A stretch of DNA of 64,000 bases from a virus (Duplodnaviria > Caudoviricetes): IMG/VR virus record IMGVR_UViG_3300025133_000020; one strand, written 5' to 3'. The number at the start of each line of letters is the position of its first letter. Position 1 is the stretch's first letter. The notes under the pieces were generated by a model. That model was not told where the DNA came from, did no database searches, and saw nothing but the letters and a program-made list of their open reading frames with translations. Shown here piece after piece: positions 53,119 to 53,369 of this stretch. The position numbers were made by a program, and so were the translations under genes.

Positions 53119-53221
53119 CTAATGGTATCAACCATTTAAAAGGTTACTATACAGAAATGTGGGTTTCCCTTCGGGGTCAGACCACAGCCAAAACTACCTT
53201 TTGAGACTTTTGTGCCAATAT

Positions 53222-53285
53222 GGGGATGAAATGTGTGCCGCCACGGTGGTATAGCGTTTTTGGAAGCTCACCCTTCCCATCCCCA
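53222..53285 (+). ncRNA. D-armless tRNA-like RNA
   Basis: GGGGATG/CATCCCC-A; extended AAATGT/GCGTTT + TGCCGC/GTGGTA helix; GGAAG/CTTCC arm. Confidence 0.6.
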
Positions 53286-53293
53286 CTAATATT

Positions 53294-53369
53294 ACAACCA
53301 TTGTTAGAGTTACTTGGTTGACGGAGAGCTTCGGCTCGAAGTTAAGGTTCAATTCCTTAAATGGGTGTG
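53294..53369 (+). ncRNA. tRNA-like RNA with anticodon loop replaced by UUCG
   Basis: ACAACCA/TGGGTGT; GTTA/TGAC D stem with GG; GAGC-TTCG-GCTC; TTAAGG-TTCAATT-CCTTAA. Confidence 0.6.

Follow-up and report, generated by a model that had tools for sequence, protein, structure and literature searches.

A noncoding transcription unit in a phage without a cultured relative

This study analyzed a 64,000-nucleotide stretch of phage DNA (hereafter termed the window, from a contig of 38% GC) in which a row of structured RNAs resembles tRNAs that have lost their anticodons, raising the question of what these RNAs are and whether they are all of one kind. An initial annotation had described them as a dedicated array of acceptor/T-domain mimics, similar to the tRNA-like domain of tmRNA, in a unit with its own strong promoter, a boxA-like element, and a terminator but no protein gene. 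The features of the unit are listed as follows:

52818..52846, + strand: promoter, read from the sequence (-35 TTGCAT at 52818-52823, 17-nt spacer, -10 TATATT at 52841-52846)
52852..52886, + strand: leader, comprising the hairpin UGUUG-AAAGAAA-CAACA at 52852-52868 and the boxA-like GUUCUUUGAAA at 52876-52886
52890-52992, + strand: element A, tRNA-shaped RNA with a D-loop insertion (Rfam tRNA model, 40.8 bits)
53005-53118, + strand: element B, tRNA-shaped RNA with a D-loop insertion
53123..53217, + strand: element C, "AACCAU/GACU" fold (MFE; family covariation in alignment A10; model R3, 80.5 bits)
53222..53285, + strand: element D, minimal tRNA mimic (fold; covariance models R1 and R2; covariation)
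about 53293..53403, + strand: element E, second member of the "AACCAU/GACU" fold (MFE; alignment with L004; model R3, 76.2 bits)
53431..53460, + strand: intrinsic terminator, 13-bp stem with a UUCG loop and a final U run (-16.5 kcal/mol; z -5.37; 0/200 shuffles as good)

The outline of the unit agreed with the initial annotation, including the promoter, the boxA-like element, the terminator, and the lack of a protein gene. The five structured elements are located between the leader and the terminator at gaps of 3-12 nt, and no ORF longer than 33 aa was found on the + strand of 52850-53470. A consensus scan missed the promoter at 52818-52846 because TTGCAT shares only 3/6 positions with TTGACA. 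Comparing six related loci (the window, L001, L003, L004, L129, and L130) revealed that the -10 block GTAT-TTTGTA is nearly invariant, that the -35 element occurs as TTGCAT, TTGACA, or TTGCTA, and that the leader core AAAG...GTTCTTT does not vary. The -10 block and leader core were thus retained in all six loci despite divergence elsewhere.

The GUUCUUUGAAA leader may be classified as boxA-type on the basis of its resemblance to known elements, and the function we propose for it is borrowed from the rrn system. This classification fits a long untranslated transcript that would need protection from Rho. A 19-nt word of the leader was also observed upstream of other tRNA and ncRNA units in unrelated IMG/VR phages, suggesting that phages employ a boxA-type leader for ncRNA units; searching IMG/VR with this 19-mer yielded no additional close relative. 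In one unrelated IMG/VR phage (L261, 40-620), a promoter and the same boxA-like word precede approximately 450 nt of GC-rich, apparently structured RNA. This RNA had no significant match in Rfam, and two sub-threshold matches to microRNA precursors on the opposite strand were taken as chance.

Related loci and gene neighborhood

Related loci were gathered by using two anchors, a Pth2-like gene and the kinase-like gene downstream of the unit, which yielded 154 loci in total. A comparable unit was present in the close relatives L001 (a 152-kb IMG/VR contig), L003, and L004 and in the distant relatives L032, L071, L106, L123, L128, L129, and L130, for which the kinase identity was approximately 60%. 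Judged by sequence, the phage is without a cultured relative, because a blastn search of 50,697 phage records (INPHARED) with the unit returned no match and a tblastn search with the neighboring kinase-like protein returned only matches of <52% identity. A tblastn search with the large window ORF 35463-36878 identified no relative, and no related locus was obtained with the CCA-adding enzyme as an anchor.

The content of the array was fluid. The order is A-B-C-D-E in the window and B-A-C-D-D-D-C-D-E in L004, and in L001 three other hairpin RNAs come after A-D-D-B. In the distant units, a genuine, initiator-like tRNA-Met(CAU) with a 1:72 mismatch is also present, located directly beside D-type mimics (L032 471-542; L071 293-364; L129 4774-4845; L130 4843-4915), and the window unit has none.

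Elements A and B have homologues in L003, L004, L032, and L071 and were without an anticodon in every relative; in element A, the D-loop insert comprises 37 nt and the "anticodon" loop 4 nt. The insert hairpin in the D loop of B-type RNAs keeps a C/A-rich loop across distant relatives, reading CACCAC, AACCACC, or CCACCAC (window 53005-53118; L003 1252-1368; L032 39-148; L071 1-90). Some D-type T loops read CUCACC or CCACCA, and such CCA-like loops of the B- and D-type mimics might matter for any binder of these RNAs.

The window encodes a tmRNA at 50201-50562, an amber-suppressor tRNA at 52380-52453, a CCA-adding enzyme at 55302-56501 (2 kb downstream of the unit), and more tRNAs near 60-63 kb. 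Downstream of the unit, the kinase-like gene starts as a stub (MNNKFPKLLILGNARHG...), truncated where a GIY-YIG homing-endonuclease gene intervenes, after which a complete copy with a differently spelled start follows (window 53506-53560, 53597-54196, and 54126-54728). The arrangement of stub, GIY-YIG gene, and full copy is identical in L071, at the same codon (1021-1075, about 1125-1886, and 1888-2415). Just past the unit terminator of L129 (5231-5400; similarly in L130, from 5248), a release-factor-like ORF (LEIRDAEGGKDAKLL...) meets an in-frame TGA and later a TAG, which suggests that the release-factor gene of these phages, which bear suppressor tRNAs, is recoded or split.

Structure and family of element D

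Element D forms a perfect 7-bp acceptor stem (53222-53228 with 53278-53284). A 13-bp hairpin with a CACG loop (53229-53259) begins directly after acceptor position 7 and substitutes for both the D arm and the anticodon arm. A UU linker leads from this hairpin to a 5-bp T stem (53262-53266 with 53273-53277) carrying the 6-nt T loop CUCACC. The discriminator A73 is at 53285, with U-1 on the 5' flank and the trailer CUAAU on the 3' flank. The minimum free energy was -29.5 kcal/mol (z -4.15), and 1/200 shuffled sequences folded as well.

We identified 22 copies of D on 10 distinct related contigs, all of one architecture. The acceptor stem has 7/7 pairs in 21 of the 22 copies, the T stem has 4-5 of 5 pairs, and the hairpins end in loops of 3-10 nt (mean hairpin z-score, -3.3). 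The flanking positions are similarly constant, with A73 in 22/22, C74 in 20/22, and U-1 in 19/22 copies. In alignment A11, which comprises 20 copies and was fitted to a covariance model that itself favors pairing, the acceptor stem was 99.3% paired with compensatory changes at 6/7 pairs, and the T stem was 84% paired with compensatory changes at 5/5 pairs; in total, 11/12 pairs exhibited compensatory changes. None of 500 shuffles reached the observed covariation score, and slid registers paired at just 38-52%. The hairpin and T stem also paired in D orthologues defined by a sequence pattern, which had not been selected for pairing. Seven copies from three close contigs shared the same fold, and covariance model R1, built on these seven close copies, detected further copies at distant loci with E values of 1e-4 to 6e-6. 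The perfect acceptor stem, the missing D arm, and the single long helix that the initial annotation had described for 53222-53285 were thus confirmed by the fold and by a covarying family of 22 copies.

The acceptor stem is the most conserved part of D. Its core, GGRGAUG...CAUCYCC-A, was retained across phages whose kinase proteins are approximately 60% identical, and the sequence of the hairpin was replaced. The sequence-only pattern GGRGAYG...CRTYYYCA yielded 37 matches versus 0 in shuffles. The + strand matches comprised D copies, one ordinary tRNA-Ala, and three likely chance matches, and the remaining matches were reverse-strand images, which arise because the acceptor core of D is nearly palindromic. 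Model R2 found no members beyond those already collected, and the exact pattern of the D 3' half matched only the L001 contig in IMG/VR. A fast structural scanner, which returned 153 matches versus 30 in shuffles and also catches ordinary tRNAs, was used as a lead only. ARAGORN called none of the D copies, and the Rfam tRNA and tmRNA models did not match them even at lax thresholds (E up to 10 for the window D).

We further analyzed which tRNA the acceptor stem of D resembles. Because L060 encodes a normal tRNA-Ala(UGC) with a GGGGAUG/CAUCUCC acceptor, D looks, by sequence, like an Ala- or tmRNA-type acceptor stem in which G3:U70 has been changed to G-C or A-U. Position 3:70 was G-C in 11 copies, A-U in 6, C-G in 1, U-A in 1, and unpaired in 1, and was never G-U. 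The acceptor stems of D did not consistently match any one tRNA isotype of these phages, so no specific target of D can be named.

Close relatives differ in the number of D copies, with a range of 1 to 4, and the copies adjoin one another as a run of three in L004 and a pair in L001. In L129 and L130, D copies lie directly beside genuine initiator-like tRNA-Met. The adjoining copies, the variable number, and the tRNA-Met neighbors indicate that D behaves like the genes of a tRNA cluster and is not only a spacer. Normal tRNAs at these positions in relatives would have argued against a dedicated array; D, A, and B were anticodon-less in every relative.

Full cloverleaf RNAs with D and T arms and an anticodon stem closed by a 4-6 nt loop (for example, UUCG or AUUA) were also observed at other jumbo-phage loci (L020 10895-10965; L087 2616-2682; L114 5034-5103 and 5110-5180; L051 7388-7458 and 7627-7698; L019 10818-10886). 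These short-looped cloverleaves suggest that nondecoding tRNA look-alikes are widespread in the clade.

Elements C and E share a separate fold

The initial annotation had included 53122-53218 and 53294-53369, which correspond to C and E, among the cloverleaf-like mimics. For C, the fold closed by TGGTAT/GTGCCA with CCC-TTCG-GGG was indeed the minimum free energy structure; the likeness to a cloverleaf or an acceptor mimic was not upheld, given that C has no T arm and shares a non-tRNA architecture with E. Within those limits, C and E folded no better than shuffles (z about -1.5; for C, -1.4 to -1.5), and the C fold closed by UGGUAU/GUGCCA is credible, on sequence comparison, only through its relatives.

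In C, P1 pairs 53123-53128 with 53212-53217, P2 pairs 53135-53144 with 53196-53205, and the insert is one hairpin (53158-53186) with CCC-UUCG-GGG at 53167-53176. In E, P1 pairs 53293-53297 with 53399-53403, P2 pairs 53303-53310 with 53385-53392, and the insert contains three hairpins: GAGC-UUCG-GCUC at 53326-53337, a T-like hairpin at 53343-53359 with the loop UUCAAUU, and a third at 53361-53380. The common order is P1, AACCAU, P2, UACU, a variable insert, P2', GACUWUU, and P1'. P1 comprises 5-9 bp, including the AA of AACCAU with the UU of GACUWUU, and is followed by an internal loop and a P2 of 8-10 bp.

The family comprises six copies, paralogues counted, from three closely related contigs. 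The 5' block (AACCAU, 7 nt, GUUACU) was invariant in all copies, namely two in the window (0.15 expected), three in L004, and one in L003, and the 3' block ACYUU...GACUWUU was common to all complete copies. Each of the five complete copies alone yielded the same MFE architecture. In alignment A10, P1 and P2 were 92% paired, with compensatory changes at 8/15 pairs; 0/500 shuffles matched this result, and slid registers reached only 42-54%. The P1 register of the window C is shifted by one nucleotide. Model R3 independently recovered the truncated L003 copy (E 2.6e-6) and found nothing else beyond the collected copies in 1.4 Mb of related loci. A search of IMG/VR with the 5' motif returned 106 matches, consistent with chance, none of which was accompanied by the 3' motif, the T loop, or the trailer.

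Comparing E between the window and L004 clarified which parts of the earlier model hold. The UUCG-capped hairpin and the T-like hairpin are present and conserved in L004, where the tetraloop of the former is GAAA and the stem is re-paired, and the T-like loop reads UUCAAUY in both. The third hairpin covaries (GGGUG/CGCCC versus ACAGG/CCUGU). The proposed acceptor CAACCAU/AUGGGUG (6/7 pairs) cannot form in L004, and the proposed D stem overlaps the better supported P2 helix. Because P2 pairs 53303-53310 with 53385-53392, E extends to about 53403, past the earlier end at 53369.

These comparisons indicate that C and E are paralogues of one previously undescribed fold that is absent from Rfam and is not a cloverleaf. 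The closing helices are not acceptor stems, the stack of a 7-bp acceptor on a 5-bp T stem is absent, the Rfam tRNA and tmRNA models matched neither RNA at E up to 10, and ARAGORN called neither. Two elements that resemble broken tRNAs are re-annotated here as a new RNA fold. One may speculate that E, with its retained T-loop hairpin and conserved stretch of GGUU, presents a surface similar to the tRNA elbow.

Several other candidates were considered for C and E. Reading E as a small ORF was rejected because the frames of the window and L004 differ in length and have no peptide similarity, and because tetraloop swaps account for the conservation. In a comparison by eye, the internal loop did not fit the hammerhead, twister, k-turn, or tetraloop-receptor consensus, and no Rfam ribozyme model matched. 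The ncRNA units of distant relatives contain, often in several copies, GGUUAG-WUWCAGCAA...A-rich...CUAACC hairpins (L032 161-230; L073 from 3636; L129 4609-4680; L130 4607-4672; L154 from 1719 and from 2580; L001 12162-12330) that resemble the C core GGUUAC-UAUACAGAAA...AAAACUACCUU. Homology of C to such hairpins (GGUUAG-WUWCAGCAA...AAAAACUAACC) could not be demonstrated, with a loose regular expression yielding 113 matches versus 101 in shuffles and R3 missing the hairpins.

The separate fold of C and E bears directly on whether all three of C, D, and E mimic an acceptor/T domain in the manner of the tRNA-like domain of tmRNA, a reading that we consider quite improbable. D does share the topology of acceptor, one long helix, and T arm, and its G-rich acceptor is close to the GGGGGUG of the phage tmRNA; E holds a hairpin with a canonical T-loop sequence, and the window, L001, L004, L129, and L130 each have a tmRNA gene 2-7 kb upstream. 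The description as an array of such mimics fits D, A, and B but fails for C, which lacks a T arm, and for E, the acceptor pairing of which is missing in L004; the closing helices of both belong to their shared non-tRNA architecture. The resemblance of D to tmRNA is limited to the topology and the G-rich acceptor. The phage's own tmRNA has G3:U70, the alanine charging determinant, and D never does; D has 0 nt at the D-loop analogue and no coding part, and the Rfam tmRNA model did not match it. ARAGORN and Rfam found no tmRNA other than that at 50201-50562.

The same data address whether the elements are decaying, functionless tRNA pseudogenes. Large phages tend to duplicate and lose genes of their tRNA clusters through decay, and C and E taken alone fold no better than shuffles. 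The covariation contradicts this reading, which we find scarcely credible: distant relatives retained the anticodon-less architectures, every helix showed compensatory changes, tetraloops swapped from UUCG to GAAA with the stems kept, and the promoter, leader, and terminator are dedicated and conserved.

Proposed processing and possible role of the unit

The flanks of A, B, and D are the same as those of the genuine tRNAs of these phages, with U-1, G+1, A73-C74, and no encoded CCA. In the window and L004, each C or E copy begins 4-6 nt past the discriminator of a tRNA mimic, and each C copy ends 2-4 nt ahead of the G+1 of the next mimic. The main determinant for RNase P is a 7-bp acceptor stem (PMC4201824).

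On the basis of these observations, we favor, with confidence slightly short of even, the reading that the locus is an ncRNA unit in the style of an rRNA operon that is processed into stable RNAs, with D as a nondecoding mimic of the tRNA acceptor end. The unit would be an untranslated, multi-RNA transcription unit organized like an rRNA or tRNA operon, in which the promoter and boxA-like leader would let RNA polymerase traverse approximately 600 nt of RNA that is structured and free of ribosomes. A, B, and D would then be excised by host RNase P together with 3' trimming, as suggested by U-1/G+1, the 7-bp acceptor on a 5-bp T stem, and A73-C74 without CCA, and the phage CCA-adding enzyme would finish their ends. 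Given the positions at which C and E start and C ends relative to the mimics, the excision of D would also fix the 3' boundary of C and the 5' boundary of E. The second kind of product would probably be C and E, each with two stacked helices around a conserved internal loop and a variable insert. D cannot decode because it has no D arm and no anticodon loop; it would most likely serve as a stable mimic that competes for, or soaks up, proteins reading only the acceptor end. We infer processing and CCA addition from the observed structures, conservation, and flanks, and the decoy role most tentatively of all. A competitor that depends on dosage would be consistent with the variable copy number and with the diversification of the paralogues. 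Against this reading, several D copies have noncanonical 6-nt T loops (CUCACC, CCACCA) that RNase P or the CCA-adding enzyme might recognize less well.

The spacing of C and E also raises the alternative that D is a processing handle only, that is, a tRNA-shaped cutting signal that releases C, E, and other RNAs, with the excised mimic as a by-product. Every C and E copy follows a tRNA mimic at a gap of 4-6 nt, C ends 2-4 nt before the next mimic, and the t-elements of plant mitochondria act as signals for RNase P and a 3' nuclease (PMC1920247). Adjoining mimics (D-D-D in L004, D-D in L001, and tRNA-Met-D-D in L129), however, enclose no RNA that could be released, no mimics separate the three non-tRNA hairpin RNAs in L001, and the acceptor sequence is conserved far beyond the needs of a shape-only signal. 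The adjoining copies, the position beside a real tRNA-Met, and the conserved acceptor sequence make a handle-only role unlikely.

Some synthetases can charge minihelices. D might be aminoacylated and used outside decoding, either as a carrier for nonribosomal transfer or as a codon-independent acceptor that would remove nascent chains from stalled ribosomes, the product then being cleared by the Pth2-like hydrolase of the phage. The intact 12-bp acceptor/T helix, A73, and conserved acceptor sequence are consistent with charging, as is a neighborhood containing a tmRNA, a Pth2-like gene, a suppressor tRNA, and a CCA-adding enzyme. No identity set was recognizable in D, and G3:U70 is absent; the noncanonical T loops would weaken the use of D by EF-Tu and the ribosome, and no evident transferase was found among the scanned neighbors. 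We consider charging of D highly improbable.

If D is an acceptor-end mimic, defense toxins that read this end are, by analogy, a possible class of target. The toxSAS FaRel2 (doi 10.1101/2024.07.05.602228) and MenT (PMC10435456) recognize their target tRNAs through the acceptor stem and introduce modifications at the CCA end. In a more specific version, which we consider doubtful, D, A, and B would together supply bulk CCA-tailed acceptor-end decoys that absorb abortive-infection toxins, candidates by analogy being MenT-type nucleotidyltransferases, CapRel/FaRel-type pyrophosphokinases, and HEPN tRNases. The CCA-adding enzyme would repair both decoys and tRNAs, and C and E would be a new RNA class with a protein target of their own.

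Comparison with known systems

Compared with canonical tRNA (RF00005), D has no D arm and has a 4-nt loop instead of a 7-nt anticodon loop, and it keeps the acceptor/T stack and A73. With the tRNA-like domain of tmRNA, D shares a three-way junction, one long helix, a T arm, a G-rich acceptor, and A73; it differs in lacking G3:U70, the D-loop analogue, the pseudoknots, and the tag frame, in that its helix is simply capped, and in having no RF00023 match.

The leader of the phage unit invites comparison with rRNA operons, which have the order boxB-boxA and the boxA consensus GCUCUUUAACAA. The phage hairpin followed by GUUCUUUGAAA resembles both this order and GCUCUUUAACAA, and it likewise precedes a long untranslated structured transcript. 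GUUCUUUGAAA is not identical to any characterized boxA, and binding of NusB/NusE to it is putative.

The t-elements are nondecoding acceptor/T-arm folds that are cut by RNase P and RNase Z and can receive CCA (PMC1920247), and tRNA-like processing signals of the mascRNA type bear the same kind of likeness to D. The t-elements define mRNA ends, whereas the phage unit has no ORF, its mimics flank C and E at 2-6 nt and adjoin one another, and the acceptor sequence is conserved. [quoted passage not shown] The ends of YrlA form a Ro60-binding stem and its gene lies beside rsr, whereas the phage unit has no such stem and no Rfam match; no Ro60 (TROVE) domain was found among the approximately 20 neighboring window ORFs scanned.

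Along with the t-elements, the closest known analogues are found in T4, in which RNAC (species 1) and RNAD (species 2) are nondecoding stable RNAs that end the phage tRNA cluster and whose function has been unknown for decades (PMC3014915, PMC9697503). In RNAC, the ends are paired, the T arm is canonical (CCGGG-UUCGAAU-CCCGG), and long hairpins replace the D and anticodon arms, which is the same design idea as that of D; genes for a GIY-YIG endonuclease and a dNMP kinase also lie near RNAC and RNAD in T4. Models R2 and R3, with filters off, did not match rnaC or rnaD in T4 69000-75000. Given the agreement in shape and genomic setting, RNAC and RNAD may be regarded as analogues of D rather than demonstrated relatives. 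T4 adds two such RNAs to eight real tRNAs, whereas the window unit consists only of nondecoders, has several paralogous copies, and has its own boxA-type leader.

Relative to these systems, the minimal D family, an operon without an mRNA to punctuate, and C and E as a separate fold appear to be new. The 22 covarying copies from 10 phages and the conserved ncRNA-only operon provide a comparative data set for the T4-like idea in uncultured phages, which makes the function of nondecoding tRNA-like RNAs testable.
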